53,828 nucleotides of DNA from Candidatus Hermodarchaeota archaeon (GTDB taxonomy: Archaea > Asgardarchaeota > Thorarchaeia > Thorarchaeales > Thorarchaeaceae), in the NCBI GenBank assembly GCA_048885865.1, contig JBHLLF010000007.1:62776-116603 (forward strand). Direction: 5' to 3'. Positions 38,717 to 52,334 of this stretch are shown piece by piece (the first letter of the stretch is position 1; every line of letters starts with the position of its first letter). A model generated the notes under the pieces. The model worked only from the letters and a program-made list of their open reading frames with translations, was not told the origin of the DNA and searched no databases. The translations under genes were made by a program, and so were the position numbers.

Positions 38717-39625
38717 CTACTCCTTAACGACCTCTTGAATCATTTCATTCAATCGACGACTTCTTGGACCTCCGAATCCATCATGATACGACGCAACTAT
38801 CACCTTCACACGGTCGACAAAGTCCTGCTGACGTATCTCCCTCGCCTTGGAGTTCATCTCATTCAGGTCCTCGGCTGTAAAGAGACAGAAGATAGCTGGC
38901 TCTGAAACGGAGATGTACCACTCCCAGAGTGAATCAGGATACCTACTCATGAGCCATTCAATGACAGCATTGTAATCCGCAATCCGCTCGTTCCATGTCA
39001 CTCTTGCTAGAAAGGGTATGCTCCCGGCCTCCCCAAGTTCGAGATTAGCAGTGAATATGACACTCTCGCCTTCAACAAGCTCGCTAACAAGTCGCCTCAC
39101 GCGTCTTGCGGTCATGCCTGATTCCCGAGCAAGATCGACAATGCTCATCCTAGGATTATCTCGAAGATAGTATAGGACCTTGAGATGGTTTGTGGTCAAT
39201 TCGGTCTTTGTGCCTCTGGCTGTCACCAGTGTATGAAGCTCAACATCCTCAACTCCCTCAAGTGTTCTCAGATGCGAACCCAACTCCATAAGCTCGACAG
39301 TGTTGACGTACTCTGCAAGAAGAGCGTAATGGCCATCACTATATGCAGCGGCTGCAACCATGGATGGACTCTCGCCTATTTTATTCACGAAAGCCTCCTC
39401 ATCCTGAGACCCATCAGTCCGAAGCAAACCAAAGAGAAACTGGGCATCCAGCATTGCAAGTGATAGTCGGATTGAATAGCGCTGAATGACACCCGACTCC
39501 TCCAGTTTTTGGACCCTTTTTTTGACTGCATTAGCTGAGATCCCGTGATTTCGAGAGAGTTCCTCGTAGGTGATTCTGCAGTTGTCCAGCAAATCACCCA
39601 GAATGCCTTTGTCTATTAGGTCCAA
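38717..39625 (-). CDS. Tandem double Lrp/AsnC winged-helix regulator
   Basis: LDLIDKGIL..NCRITYEELSRNHGISANAVKKRV plus second HTH; GGTGA SD before TTG 39625; paralog of 11182-12114. Confidence 0.88.
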   Translation of the reverse strand: MDLIDKGILGDLLDNCRITYEELSRNHGISANAVKKRVQKLEESGVIQRYSIRLSLAMLDAQFLFGLLRTDGSQDEEAFVNKIGESPSMVAAAAYSDGHYALLAEYVNTVELMELGSHLRTLEGVEDVELHTLVTARGTKTELTTNHLKVLYYLRDNPRMSIVDLARESGMTARRVRRLVSELVEGESVIFTANLELGEAGSIPFLARVTWNERIADYNAVIEWLMSRYPDSLWEWYISVSEPAIFCLFTAEDLNEMNSKAREIRQQDFVDRVKVIVASYHDGFGGPRSRRLNEMIQEVVKE

Positions 39626-39766
39626 GATATTCACCGAAAGGAAATGCGATGCCTCTCGACTACAGAAGCTCACAAAAAGAGTTGTCTCTCAGCATATGTA
39701 GTTCTTTTGGATTTTCGCTAATTGTTGAGAACGTTGATTAGGCGGTTGGCTTTGGATTCGCATGTA

Positions 39767-40507
39767 ATGACAACTCTCGATATGGTCAAAGGAATCATTT
39801 TCGATCTTGATGACACACTCTATCGTTCTGACATATGGGTGTCCAATCTGACACGTAAATGGCTCGAAGAGCTCGGTTTCGATGAAATTGCATCCTGTTC
39901 GAACGAAAAACTGGAACAGGCGTTTGTAACTGCGAGAACTTGGATGAATGAATACATGATTTCGGAGGGAGTTCATTCAAAATGGTATCCGTCCCATGAG
40001 CTATGGGTGGAGTACGGAAAGAGAATGCTGAGTTCCCTTGGAGTGTCCACCGAACTCGATAGGTTAGCCAATGAGATAACTGAGAAATGGGAGGCGACAG
40101 TGGTACCGTGGCAATCCAGTCTCATTCCAGGATGTAAAGAAGTCTTGGAGGAACTTCATTCAAGAGGATACAAGTTGGGTCTAGCATCAAATCGCTGGGA
40201 AGATCCTTCGGGAATTCTGAAGCGGGACTCCATATTTGGCCTCTTTGAAGCTGTGGAACACTCAATGGTTCCAGGCTATAAGAAGCCGTCACCCTATATG
40301 CTACTGAAGATATCAAGACACATGGGTATTAATCCCATGAGATGCGCATTCATTGGAGACTTCGTAGAACTGGATGTTGAGGCTGCACACAGGGCTCAGA
40401 TGACTCCAATTCTGATAACTTGGGAGAGAAAAGGGGAGGCAACGAAGGCGCCTGCAGGACTATTGACCATTGATCACATCAGGACTCTTCTTAATCTCTT
40501 CAAATAG
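39767..40507 (+). CDS. HAD-superfamily hydrolase
   Basis: IIFDLDDTL, LASN, KKPSP, FIGD..LDV. Confidence 0.9.
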   Translation: MTTLDMVKGIIFDLDDTLYRSDIWVSNLTRKWLEELGFDEIASCSNEKLEQAFVTARTWMNEYMISEGVHSKWYPSHELWVEYGKRMLSSLGVSTELDRLANEITEKWEATVVPWQSSLIPGCKEVLEELHSRGYKLGLASNRWEDPSGILKRDSIFGLFEAVEHSMVPGYKKPSPYMLLKISRHMGINPMRCAFIGDFVELDVEAAHRAQMTPILITWERKGEATKAPAGLLTIDHIRTLLNLFK

Positions 40508-40519
40508 TGCGATTTGACG

Positions 40520-40760
40520 GCAAAGAAGAGAAAATGCGCAGATATTCCTCCTTTTTTAGGAATATGCCTATGATATTTGCGTGACCGTCCACGGTTCAAA
40601 GACGGTCCTGATAGCAAAAAGGCGCATTATTATCACCATTCCGAAATCTTCCTCCTTCTGATTCCGGATAAAAGGACTCTCCTTTCGAACCGTGGATTGG
40701 GTCACCCTGTGTATGACACAGCTCCTTTTGATGTTGTTGTTTTGTCTTTTTTTGATTGCT
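40520..40760 (-). ncRNA. Candidate structured ncRNA or structured small-peptide mRNA (unknown family)
   Basis: Nested helices found by hand; G-U pairs favour the minus strand; 3' hairpin plus U-rich tail. See findings. Confidence 0.5.
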
Positions 40761-40810
40761 ACACCAAAGATATGATTAAGGGAATTTCAAATCCATTGAC
40801 CAAGTGAAAT

Positions 40811-41263
40811 ATGGTGGAAGCACTCGAAGAGATCAAGTCTTGGTTATGGATTCCAAAATACTGGATTGTTGTGTATGCATCCCTTTTGATTGTCACAATA
40901 CTTGTAGGGGAATCCCATTATTGGTCCGTTTACCTCATGGGCGTCCCACTTGCCATAATCCCAATAACCTATCGGAATCTAGTCGGTGGTGGATGTAGTC
41001 TCAGATTCCAAATATGCGCATTGGTTAAGGGAATGTCGGCAGGAGTCATTTTCATGGTTCTTACATCAGCTGTGGACATGCTCGTTTGGAGCAGTCTGGT
41101 AGTGAATCTTGGCTGGAATCCATTGGCAAACATGACTTATGCCTCCTTAATCTATCAGATCTGGTTTCTGAGCGGTATTGTTGGAGGATTTGCAGCCAGA
41201 ATTGTGGAAGTAAGAAGCTTTTCAGACCCCCAGAGCTCAATCACAATTTCAGGTTTTGAATAA
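40811..41263 (+). CDS. Hypothetical membrane protein
   Basis: About four TMs; GGGCSLRFQICA loop. Confidence 0.78.
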   Translation: MVEALEEIKSWLWIPKYWIVVYASLLIVTILVGESHYWSVYLMGVPLAIIPITYRNLVGGGCSLRFQICALVKGMSAGVIFMVLTSAVDMLVWSSLVVNLGWNPLANMTYASLIYQIWFLSGIVGGFAARIVEVRSFSDPQSSITISGFE

Positions 41264-41353
41264 TGGAGAATGTATAGCTGAGATATGTATGCTGGCGGAC
41301 CTTGAAAGCCTACATATCTATTTATAGCCGCGATGCAAATGATGGGTATCCAT

Positions 41354-41587
41354 ATGGAGATGAATCTTATGGGCAAAGGAATGGCACTTCTTGGATTGAT
41401 CCTGATAATATTCGGGCTTCTACCAATAATCTTTCAACTAATTGGGTTCAGTTATCCAATGATTACTGACCTATTCACTATGCTCAATCTCTACTCGATT
41501 GAGCTTGCAGGATATGTTTTCACAGAGATTATGTTGATCCTGATAGTATTGGGCGTCCTACTCCTAATCATTGGTGCTACCAGATAG
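41354..41587 (+). CDS. Small two-TM membrane protein
   Basis: TTTATA at ~41321; hydrophobic ORF; downstream hairpin. Confidence 0.72.
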   Translation: MEMNLMGKGMALLGLILIIFGLLPIIFQLIGFSYPMITDLFTMLNLYSIELAGYVFTEIMLILIVLGVLLLIIGATR

Positions 41588-41613
41588 CACAGATACATCA
41601 AGGTCAAAGCAGA

Positions 41614-41644
41614 CCCGTTTACGACTAGAGACGCCGTAAACGGG
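41614..41644 (+). terminator. Perfect 10-bp hairpin
   Basis: CCCGTTTACG...CGTAAACGGG. Confidence 0.6.
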
Positions 41645-41758
41645 CGCTATAGGCCATATGGACAGAGGACTTTATCATTAATCGGTTTCTCATTTCACCG
41701 TCTTTCGCAGTCTGATTCATATACAGCAATAGTGGCATGATACAGAGGGGGTCTTCCT

Positions 41759-42943
41759 TTGAAGCAATTGTCAGTGGAACAGATCCGTCTGAATCATTTG
41801 AGAAAACAGCATGCCTTTGATAGGGAGCGCCCGGATTTCTATGAAATTGCAGGAACTCAATTGGGCTTGCATTCTACAGATTATTGGACCCCATATCTGT
41901 CTGTCTGGGCAAGAATAGGAGATTATGATGCAGAGGCCATATTCAGGTCTTTGAATAGCGGTGACCGCCTGTTAAGGCTCAATGCTTTCAGAGCAACGGT
42001 TCATGTTGTACACTCTGACAATCTCTCGCTTGTGATACTTGCCACCAAATCTGCATTCTACAAAAAGATGCGGCAGCACCCAGACATCAAGCAACTTAGT
42101 GATAAGGAGATCAATTCATTGATGGAAGTCGTCCTTGCCACTCTGAAGGACGGGCCAAAGACAATGCGGGAAATCAAGAAATCGGTATCCCAATACGCGA
42201 AACAGATACGCCCTCTATTTCATTTAGCAGCGACATCTGGCAGAGTAGTCCGGGCCACTGCCAGTCATGCACGGAGTTCCACAACAGCCTACGCACTTCT
42301 GGAGAAATGGGTCAAAGGATTTAGACTGGAGGACATGCCAGAAGACAAGGCAGTCAACCTGATGATTCAAAGATACATCGACAGATTTGGCCCGGTGTCA
42401 GTCGATGACATTTCATGGTGGCTCTCAATTACAAAGACAAGAGCTAGGACTGCAGTTGAAGCCCTCAAGAATGAAGTTGTGGAAGTAGATGTGGGAGGAG
42501 CACATAAGATGATGACATCAGACGACCTCGAGTTTGCTGCCTCGCTTGAAGCCCCATCAGATCCAGTCATATGGCTGCTTCCTTATGAGGATCATCTGCC
42601 AAAATCATCCATTGAGCGTTCATGGTATCTCAGTGAGCAGATGAAGTCCTACGTCTTTCCAAAGCTGAGGGAGCATTATTGGCCGCCAGAGTGCCTTCCT
42701 CCACCTTCCGATGTGAAGGTGACTGGGGCTACAAATGCATCAGGCGAAATCAGACCAACTATATGGGTCAATGGAGAGGTCGTGGGCCGCTGGGAGTTTG
42801 AAAGTGAGAAGGAAAATTACGTCGTCAGCTACCGAATTTTGGAAAAAGTCCATGCTAAGTATGATAATATAATTTCAGAACGAGCGAGAGAGCTGGAAGA
42901 CTTTGTGAACGCACGATTGGTCCCGATATCAAGAGCGAAGTAA
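41759..42943 (+). CDS. AlkZ/YcaQ-like (HTH_42) winged-helix DNA glycosylase
   Basis: GLHSTD..PYLSVWARI, RATVHVV, YIDRFGPVSVDDISWW, LLPYED, PTIWVNGEVVGRW. Confidence 0.85.
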   Translation: MKQLSVEQIRLNHLRKQHAFDRERPDFYEIAGTQLGLHSTDYWTPYLSVWARIGDYDAEAIFRSLNSGDRLLRLNAFRATVHVVHSDNLSLVILATKSAFYKKMRQHPDIKQLSDKEINSLMEVVLATLKDGPKTMREIKKSVSQYAKQIRPLFHLAATSGRVVRATASHARSSTTAYALLEKWVKGFRLEDMPEDKAVNLMIQRYIDRFGPVSVDDISWWLSITKTRARTAVEALKNEVVEVDVGGAHKMMTSDDLEFAASLEAPSDPVIWLLPYEDHLPKSSIERSWYLSEQMKSYVFPKLREHYWPPECLPPPSDVKVTGATNASGEIRPTIWVNGEVVGRWEFESEKENYVVSYRILEKVHAKYDNIISERARELEDFVNARLVPISRAK

Positions 42944-50520: not shown

Positions 50521-52334
50521 TAGAAAGACTTCCGTTCATTGTTGACGCGTACGCAGACCACCGCGATGGCTACAACTCCCACTGCGCCAATCAGTATTGC
50601 TGAGTTCGTGATTAGCCCGATGAGAGTGCTGATTGGACCTGGCGCTGAGAGTGGAAATACAGTAAAGATTGGGTCGTGCGTGATGGCGTGCCCGTCCCAC
50701 TCAGCATAGCAGGATGCGTAGTAGTAGGTCTGCGTATACCACATATCAGCTCCAAAGGCAAGGTCTGGCGCGGGGGCGCCTTGCTCCATGAAGGGTAGAA
50801 TGTAGAAATACGTAGGAATGATTGCGGTTCCTACATCGTAGGTCCCGCCGTCCTTACCCCAGAGGTAAGTCCCTCCGAACTCTACGATGGTACGAGTGTT
50901 GGTTTCTCCCGCGACTTCCTCCTCGAATCTGATTGTACCTTCAGGTGCTACTTCGGTTTCTGGCATGCTAGCAGAAAGATCGGTTCCATCATAGAGTGCT
51001 CCACTAATCGTGTAGCTAGAGAAGGAACTCCAATACTTTGCTGCCAGACTAAGACCCTGCACCTCAGGCAAAATGATTCCGGTTTCTGGATTTGTAAAGT
51101 CTCCAAAGTGCTGGTCAACCTTGAGAACTGCAGCTTCATCTGTCACCTCAAAACGGTAGACCATCTCCAATCGGTCGACAGCTGTAGGAACGGCTATTGG
51201 TTCCGCGAAATCTTCTGGTGGCGCATCCTCAGGCCCGCAGAAGCACCAGATTGGATCAGGGTATGGATATGCAGTCATGAGATTGCCCTCTATATCGACT
51301 ACCTCGGCACTCCATTCGATCTGGTTATTGTCATTGAGTTGGGGGAGAAGGACATTGCCGAGTTCAGCTGACTCCGCGTAGAAGTCATAGACTAGCTCAG
51401 ATGCGGTTTCATTCATCTCATAATAGACCCAATCGACAATGCCATCCTCGTTATAGTCCACCTCAATCGGATCATATACTATGTCCATGATTCCATTCCT
51501 ATTCGTATCATTGAATGCGGAAAGACCCGAGAAGTAGTGATCCATCCACTGTGATGTTTCGCCGTCAGTAAACATCTCGCTGATGTCAAAGCCATAGCCT
51601 GTGAAAGAATCCTCATAGTCGTACTCATATGATTCATTCATCCAAGCAGCCCAGGAATATTCTTCCTTAAGGTTTGGAATGATATCATTTGCGTCAACTG
51701 GATTCATGTTGTCATCAAACCAAGTATAGTTGGCACTATAGAAGTAGCTTGAGTTATACTCTGAGAGATAGAAAGTAGAATAGATGAACACCTCATCTCC
51801 TGTCAATGCTTCAGGCTCCGGATACCACATCAACCCCCATATGTCAGTAGCTGTGGGCTCAACGAACCATCTGACTCCTGACAGCCAAGACATGTAAGAT
51901 GCATCCGGATCAAGGACCACTACAACAAGGAGGTTGGAGAAGGACCAATTATAGGAGTAGTCATAGATATAGTCCTCCTGAATCCAGTAGACGTTGTTGT
52001 CAACATCCTCAACATAGATGTACGGCATATATGGGGGAAGAGGTTCGGGGTCGGTTTCGTTCCATACAATGGTACCCATATCACCGGGTTCCGTCTCGCC
52101 CGGTTCAGCTGGATATGTAGGATAGAGTTCCTCTCCCCAGTCTTGACCACTGTCGTTCCACCATTCATATGCGACATATACGCCGGGCAGCATCTCTTCG
52201 AATGGTGCTACAACTTGAGATGGCCCAAAGGGGAGAGCTGTCGTCATCACAGGGAGAACTCCAACAAGCAGAATGCTGAGAAGGGCTCCCGTGGCAAGTA
52301 GTTTCATTGTGGCGCTCATTATGCTGTGCCTCAA
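50520..52334 (-). CDS. Acidic, Tyr/Trp-rich surface protein with signal peptide and C-terminal TM
   Basis: FNDTNRNGIMD and DYNEDGIVD Ca-loop-like motifs; ITHDP; TM anchor. Confidence 0.8.
   Translation of the reverse strand: MRHSIMSATMKLLATGALLSILLVGVLPVMTTALPFGPSQVVAPFEEMLPGVYVAYEWWNDSGQDWGEELYPTYPAEPGETEPGDMGTIVWNETDPEPLPPYMPYIYVEDVDNNVYWIQEDYIYDYSYNWSFSNLLVVVVLDPDASYMSWLSGVRWFVEPTATDIWGLMWYPEPEALTGDEVFIYSTFYLSEYNSSYFYSANYTWFDDNMNPVDANDIIPNLKEEYSWAAWMNESYEYDYEDSFTGYGFDISEMFTDGETSQWMDHYFSGLSAFNDTNRNGIMDIVYDPIEVDYNEDGIVDWVYYEMNETASELVYDFYAESAELGNVLLPQLNDNNQIEWSAEVVDIEGNLMTAYPYPDPIWCFCGPEDAPPEDFAEPIAVPTAVDRLEMVYRFEVTDEAAVLKVDQHFGDFTNPETGIILPEVQGLSLAAKYWSSFSSYTISGALYDGTDLSASMPETEVAPEGTIRFEEEVAGETNTRTIVEFGGTYLWGKDGGTYDVGTAIIPTYFYILPFMEQGAPAPDLAFGADMWYTQTYYYASCYAEWDGHAITHDPIFTVFPLSAPGPISTLIGLITNSAILIGAVGVVAIAVVCVRVNNERKSF

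Follow-up and report, generated by a model that had tools for sequence, protein, structure and literature searches.

The DNA analyzed here (the window) is a 53,828-nt stretch of contig C7 of a Candidatus Hermodarchaeota genome (G000; 3.58 Mb, 87% complete). Within it, a 303-nt intergenic gap (40508–40810) lies between two plus-strand genes. The first (39722–40507) encodes a HAD-family hydrolase (Pfam HAD_2, E=4.8e-21) and converges on the 3' end of the RNA described below; the second (40811–41263) encodes a hydrophobic protein of 150 aa with no Pfam match, which is widespread in Thorarchaeota, present in 57 of the 86 family genomes, and was used as a synteny anchor. The 150-aa gene is preceded by a plus-strand BRE/TATA promoter block (40758–40782), whose motif recurs at nearly every Thorarchaeota locus inspected, irrespective of whether the element is there. 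This block is conserved across Thorarchaeota although the upstream neighbors change, and it is a good reference promoter for the group. The immediate neighbors across loci encode an Lrp-type regulator, HAD and phosphatase proteins, membrane proteins and AlkZ. At most homologous loci, a histidine-phosphatase gene is retained between the HAD gene and the element; it is missing in G000 and G015 (window 40508–40535) and in G013 and L196, about 110 nt of it are left in G010, and the neighbor-gene tree indicates about three independent losses.

The sequence-only reading had described the gap as holding an unannotated structured RNA of no known family, and this description was borne out. On the minus strand, the sequence folds at -72.5 kcal/mol with a z-score of -4.42, far from zero, and none of 200 shuffled sequences folded as well. 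Folding alone does not reveal the strand, because the z-score of the plus strand (-4.60) is as good. A scan with the Rfam covariance models over 39500–42000 gave no match at E<=10, and the same search on a 300-nt stretch returned two matches only, both at E=5.5 and 13 bits, well short of the respective cut-offs (90 and 48). No credible match was obtained with the most distant homologue in Rfam 15 either. Together with the strong purifying selection described below, these data demonstrate a real, conserved and clade-restricted folded RNA element of about 180–220 bases that lies outside any Rfam family.

The proposed search for homologues was productive. A DNA search detected the element in five further genomes of the genus to which G000 belongs, and a pattern search combined with synteny look-ups via the 150-aa protein raised the total to 17 homologous loci, 15 of which were aligned (A6) for all counts of conservation, pairing and folding given below. 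All 17 occupy the equivalent genomic place, next to a neighbor protein at least 65% identical to that of G000, and the element is single-copy in every genome that carries it; a search for extra copies within the G000 genome found none. The element is absent from 24 loci at which the neighbor protein is at most 61% identical, five of them in the same genus. At the equivalent locus of two element-less genomes of this genus, G007 (L047:959–1075) and G012 (L058:1282–1398), we observed a conserved plus-strand ORF of 38 codons with a hydrophobic N-terminus and a C-terminal CxxC (CxxCH in G012). Beyond the subclade, two covariance models run over 86–87 genomes gave chance matches only, and a 20-nt pattern run over 400 Asgard genomes, together with a pattern for the 3' motif, hit only coding DNA by chance or ordinary RBSs. 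When a 17-nt pattern was compared with viral contigs and genomes of all species, true matches occurred in Thorarchaeota only, and the named records that carry the element are Thorarchaeota. Within the genomes searched, the element is thus confined to a single subclade within one genus of Thorarchaeota.

The 175-nt core of the element showed a mean identity of 87%, versus 53% at the four-fold degenerate sites of the neighboring gene, and it exceeded those sites in all 105 pairs compared. Even the most distant homologue, L206, was 70% identical in the core, versus 26% at four-fold sites, which is near saturation. In the comparison with a nearby control intergenic region (62–86% identity), core identity was 84–98% (66% in L206), and in most comparisons the core was more conserved than codon positions 1+2 of the neighboring gene, with loops and stems equally conserved. 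The A/C-rich leader (40706–40754) reached 58–89% identity, about equal to the control, so that the selected unit extends over approximately 40535–40705 and excludes the leader. The invariant blocks comprise GUGAC, CCACGG, UGCGCCU, a 20-nt run across the 5' arm and loop of P3 that is identical in all 15 sequences, the greater part of the 3' arm of P1 and, likewise in all 15, the 3' motif GGAAUAUCURCGCA. The P3 loop is invariant even where the four-fold identity of the neighbor gene is 0.26.

Every motif and helix listed in the sequence-only reading was found in place on the minus strand. At the 5' side lies the leader, which is unstructured, weakly conserved and about 35 nt shorter in L206. The core domain (40581–40705) follows, with helices P1a (40700–40705/40581–40586), P1b (40685–40696/40588–40599) and P2 (40674–40677/40605–40608; rebuilt from different letters in L206) closing a junction. 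The long closing helix proposed earlier corresponds to P1, with GUGACC (40700–40705) and UCCACGGUUCGAA (40684–40696) facing 40588–40600 and 40581–40586. Inside this three-way junction, the P3 hairpin (40640–40668; arms 40660–40668/40640–40648) presents an 11-nt loop (40649–40659) with an invariant SD-like AGGAGG; we refer to this fold as state A. An alternative helix, P3' (40610–40648; 40634–40643/40615–40624, extended by 40646–40648/40610–40612), excludes P3 and defines state B, and its region includes the invariant UGCGCCU (40620–40626). The 3' module (40535–40565) contains a weak P6 hairpin (40558–40565/40542–40549), a second loop of the AGGWGG type and the 3' motif. Straight after this motif, a TTTT run at 16 of the 17 loci opens a U/C-rich tract (40522–40534), a candidate archaeal terminator; in L206, a hairpin is inserted at the 3' end and the U tract follows it.

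Several details of the earlier description did not hold up. The hairpin at 40707–40721 is present here and is private to this genome, being absent in the homologues. The UGAUA/UAUCA hairpin sits where it was placed, at a pairing probability of 0.03 and with A-C mismatches in many homologues. The final hairpin and U-rich tail exist, although the P6 stem register is lost in L066, L193 and L206. A kissing interaction between GAAGG and CCUUU is possible (-6.6 kcal/mol), but it amounts to three contiguous pairs and -3.6 kcal/mol in L206, and it shows no covariation. All four AAGGAG motifs (40548, 40652, 40679 and 40722) are present, where about 0.07 would be expected in the 180-nt core after base shuffling; two of them are conserved across homologues, and the one at 40722 is not. 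A 5'-3' closing helix suggested by RNAalifold was rejected, because its 5' strand falls in the promoter of the 150-aa gene and its pairing is incomplete in L193 and L206. Also discarded was a local hairpin within the 3' arm of P1, which costs +18.9 kcal/mol and is unpopulated.

In the 15 homologues, P1a, P1b, P2 and P3 are paired in 97–99% of cells and P6 in 91%; P3 of L206 retains six pairs in a shifted register. The core helices vary only by one-sided G-U/G-C/A-U changes, and it is these changes, along with the helices kept in L206, that support the fold. The compensatory substitutions that had been proposed as a check did not appear: column-wise analysis of the 15-homologue alignment revealed no pair in which both sides had changed, and covariation scored the same as in the shuffled control.

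The RNA had also been called switchable, through a hairpin GACCGUC/GACGGUC (40601–40607/40583–40589) competing with the closing helix. That hairpin costs 12.7 kcal/mol, has a probability of 0.00 and is broken in G013, L196, L193 and L206, and it was abandoned. The notion of a switch gained some support from P3 and P3' instead. In P3', the 3' arm of P3 pairs with the CCUUU segment, and the freed 5' arm can fold back on AGGAGG. In constrained folds, the two states lie within 3 kcal/mol of each other in 10 of the 15 homologues, and state B is the lowest in four homologues; in L206, L201 and L203 it is weak (+7 to +8 kcal/mol). Among the variable columns of P3', two are G-U/G-C swaps and one gains an A-U pair in four sequences, while two others break pairs, and P3' shows no covariation in the alignment. 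Near-isoenergetic folds are common, which counts against a switch. From these modeled energies, we hold the evidence evenly balanced on whether a P3/P3' switch may alternately expose and mask the AGGAGG loop.

We next consider the strand. The MFE is lower on the minus strand in 14 of 15 homologues, with a consensus of -44.7 versus -32.6 on the plus strand. Majority-state G-U pairs occur on the minus strand only, in P3, in P1b (as a G-U/A-U/G-C series) and in P3'. The earlier argument from G-U pairs therefore holds on balance across the family, with counter-examples: plus-favoring changes were found in P1b of L206 (two C-A) and as single cases in G010, L200 and L193, and L206 folds better on the plus strand. 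The U tract at 40522–40534 resembles tracts behind the tRNA genes of G000. Fold energies, G-U pairs and the conserved U tract thus all favor the minus strand, a stand-alone minus-strand RNA being the most likely reading, and the sequence evidence indicates that the RNA is probably transcribed from that strand.

As for the promoter, a TATA-like box lies 72–77 nt upstream of P1 (40 nt in L206). The TTAAT box of 40758–40782 can also be read as a minus-strand TATA, resembling the boxes upstream of the tRNA-Met and tRNA-Sec genes of G000, with a predicted start at about 40754. At nearly every Thorarchaeota locus inspected, this box serves the 150-aa gene; it is a candidate promoter of the minus-strand RNA, for which it would have to be used in both directions. 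No conserved plus-strand promoter was seen, and the upstream gene differs among genomes. The roughly three losses of the phosphatase gene, each leaving the element intact, argue against a dedicated plus-strand promoter.

A seeming 5' domain in the sister genome G014 proved to be a mobile insertion and not part of the RNA. It separates the TATA box from the RNA, and conservation of the element is undiminished, a point against the minus-strand reading. The insertion (L012:about 1298–1502; G014:C41) is a non-coding stretch of about 205 nt between promoter and element. Matching sequences, frequently in many copies, were seen in 52 of the 86 Thorarchaeota genomes, and the insertion was not found in G000. 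GGG (here TGGG) precedes each copy, AACGG closes it, and the 3' 80 nt are the best conserved part. A TGGG motif and a CGG end are features of IS607-type elements with omega-RNA (bioRxiv 10.1101/2023.11.20.567912), and the insertion fits a putative non-autonomous IS607-type element with an omega-RNA-like right end.

If the plus strand were transcribed instead, the element would be a structured 3' UTR, or a 3'-UTR-derived sRNA, of the HAD/phosphatase operon, and its CCUCCU anti-SD loops would repress mRNAs by masking their RBSs, in the manner of sRNA154 and sRNA41 of Methanosarcina. The similar folding z-scores of the two strands agree with this, as do the position of the element, 7–28 nt after the upstream stop codon at most loci, and the A/C leader, which reads as a U/G-rich terminator on the plus strand. 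Under this reading the insertion in G014 would be neutral, and the exact 11-nt complement of the plus loop occurs in two real start regions of G000 (C1:40923 and C10:38490), which would be putative targets. On that strand, however, the invariant or majority G-U pairs turn into A-C mismatches, the consensus energy is 12 kcal/mol weaker and the variation in P3' is no longer compatible with pairing; the varying upstream gene and the lack of a conserved promoter noted above also speak against it. We consider a plus-strand RNA doubtful.

On the minus strand, a peptide-coding function is the other alternative of comparable standing: the RNA would be a structured mRNA encoding a very small hydrophobic peptide, its translation gated by an SD switch as in a type I toxin or a leader-peptide switch. 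A small internal ORF (40568–40636, minus strand) runs for 22 codons from a GTG at 40636. In all 15 homologues, an ATG or GTG, in frame with a near-invariant ATG-CGC-CT, follows GGAGG by 14–15 nt; the GTG start is replaced by ATG only, state B masks SD and start alike, and nine of the 15 carry GGTGA 5 nt ahead of the second ATG, the spacing favored in G000. The peptides have GRAVY values of 0.7–1.3. Nevertheless, the ORF is frameshifted in L193, L206 and L201, its length ranges from 11 to 37 aa, and 8 of 27 changes are synonymous versus 24% expected, which is no synonymous excess. The second ATG is CTG in L066, GGTGA is altered in five homologues, the GGAGG spacing falls outside the 7–10-nt peak, charged residues occur mid-chain, and no antitoxin promoter was seen. 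The ORF is probably not the selected function, and an mRNA of this kind is unlikely. Type I toxin mRNAs such as aapA3 (PMC6733600) and timP (PMC13000454) are likewise compact and highly folded, and their alternative structures conceal or reveal an SD ahead of a short ORF, as the possible P3/P3' switch would, whereas the ORF found here is unconserved in frame and length and without a clear transmembrane helix, and an antitoxin RNA is not evident. CreT RNA toxins (PMC8501985) share with the element an SD, a GUG/AUG, two AUA codons (in 14 of 15 homologues) and then structure. This identity was rejected, since AUA is not rare in G000 (17.4 per 1000 codons, 24% of Ile codons), the tandem AUA is absent in L206, and neither CRISPR-Cas nor creA occurs among the immediate neighbors of the locus. 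A plus-strand ORF of 76 aa (40577–40807) was also dismissed, as it contains stops in G014, G013 and L066.

The SD-like motifs might also be incidental, the element being an orphan RNA that binds a protein, as a GGA-rich sponge, or senses a ligand. Sponges of the CsrB/RsmZ type carry many GGA/AGGA motifs, some of them in loops. The element is likewise GGA/AGGA-rich, with nine GGA triplets in 180 nt versus 3.3 expected (P=0.0004), a count that is not independent of the SD motifs, and its invariance exceeds the needs of pairing, for example in the 3' motif and the P1 3' arm. Yet CsrA (PF02599) was not found in G000, which is 87% complete, most GGA triplets lie within stems, and just two motifs are conserved in loops. 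The earlier suggestion of a ribozyme or riboswitch found no support; no minus-strand gene lies downstream, and no Rfam ribozyme or riboswitch resembles the element. A protein- or ligand-binding RNA is therefore quite unlikely. Very improbable is a DNA-level feature or mobile-element remnant (cruciform, MITE). In favor of it, the element is a long inverted repeat with a mixed strand signal, and other members of the genus and family lack it at the equivalent locus, which implies a single appearance within a subclade. Against it, the element is single-copy everywhere, has no transposase nearby, and is conserved above neighbor codon positions 1+2 in most comparisons with loops as conserved as stems.

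Known structured RNAs were also compared. Archaeal SRP RNA (RF01857) and RNase P RNA (RF00373) resemble the element in a long closing helix capped by a multi-way junction. RNase P was rejected because its true gene lies at C4:63429–63766 (162.6 bits, RF00373), and SRP because RF01857 has no match at the element. SRP RNA is missing from the G000 assembly and is found full-length elsewhere in four of five element-bearing sister genomes (E about 1e-20); hence, the element replaces neither RNA. An Asgard SECIS, which lies in the 3' UTR of a selenoprotein gene and has a GA/GA quartet core (PMC11227280), was rejected as well, since the upstream HAD and histidine-phosphatase frames are ordinary and no conserved GA/GA core was visible by eye.

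The putative stand-alone minus-strand RNA is conserved, non-coding, intergenic and stably folded, as expected of an archaeal trans-acting sRNA. The 3' end of the G000 16S rRNA is GAUCACCUCCU, and its CCUCCU is complementary to the AGGAGG loop; against this end, both conserved purine stretches are SD mimics without a properly spaced start. The spacing from GGAGG to ATG in G000 peaks at 7–10 nt, where the element has no start codon. Since conserved SD-like motifs lack a start at the usual spacing, they would most likely act as bait. We therefore propose the following model. A non-coding sRNA of about 220 nt would be transcribed from the minus strand, sharing its TATA back-to-back with the 150-aa gene, and would end at 40534–40522. 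Its long irregular helix P1a-P1b-P2 would support a head with two folds of nearly equal energy: state A would display AGGAGG in the 11-nt loop, and state B would partly mask AGGAGG and lock CCUUU in P3', with a second SD-like stretch in the 3' module. These motifs would pair with and titrate a C-rich anti-SD RNA, either the 16S 3' end or sRNAs with anti-SD loops, and the fold switch would set the availability of the bait. Guide-type complementarity was sought in 19 tRNAs, RNase P, SRP and a 16S 3' fragment, and the only matches were of a length judged, rather than computed, to be chance; the G000 assembly lacks the 16S body and the 23S. The loop complementarity found is generic 6-bp SD/anti-SD pairing, and no specific partner was identified; we therefore keep the sRNA with SD mimics, acting as a decoy for a C-rich anti-SD RNA, as a tentative proposal from sequence. 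Its most specific form, a conformationally gated SD-mimic RNA of Asgard archaea that would titrate 30S subunits or an anti-SD sRNA family, serving as a sponge or ribosome decoy turned on and off by its own fold, appears improbable.

Intergenic hairpins exposing loops of the CCUCC/UCCUCC type were observed in G000 at C39:5989, C15:12707, C10:28157 and C61:1776; a CGUCC(C)UCCC-like motif is common to the first three, which may form a candidate anti-SD sRNA family and would be possible partners of the decoy. Among known systems, sRNA154 and sRNA41 of Methanosarcina mazei (PMC5867862) are similarly archaeal, intergenic, lineage-restricted and stably folded, with conserved loops tied to SD pairing. 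They show anti-RBS loops that pair with mRNAs, whereas the element shows the SD itself on its favored strand and has no sequence or Rfam similarity to them. The full-text literature, at incomplete coverage, contained no description of regulatory small RNAs in Thorarchaeota; the element itself is apparently undescribed, and its general kind, the orphan archaeal sRNA, is familiar. If the element is an SD-mimic decoy that bears a switch, this would be a mode of translational control without an archaeal precedent known to us. The narrow distribution, the absent covariation and the uncultured host limit the impact for now. The element is a well-bounded, strongly selected candidate sRNA, and, having arisen within one genus, it provides an example of recent sRNA birth beside an old promoter.

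Two tRNA calls by ARAGORN were observed in passing. One, at 50759–50849 of the window, is a 91-nt tRNA-His with the unusual anticodon ATG, possibly a false call, an intron-containing tRNA or a degenerate one; a normal tRNA-His(GTG) lies on C24. The other is a tRNA-Sec gene at C4:15723–15813 of G000, consistent with the use of selenocysteine in Thorarchaeota.
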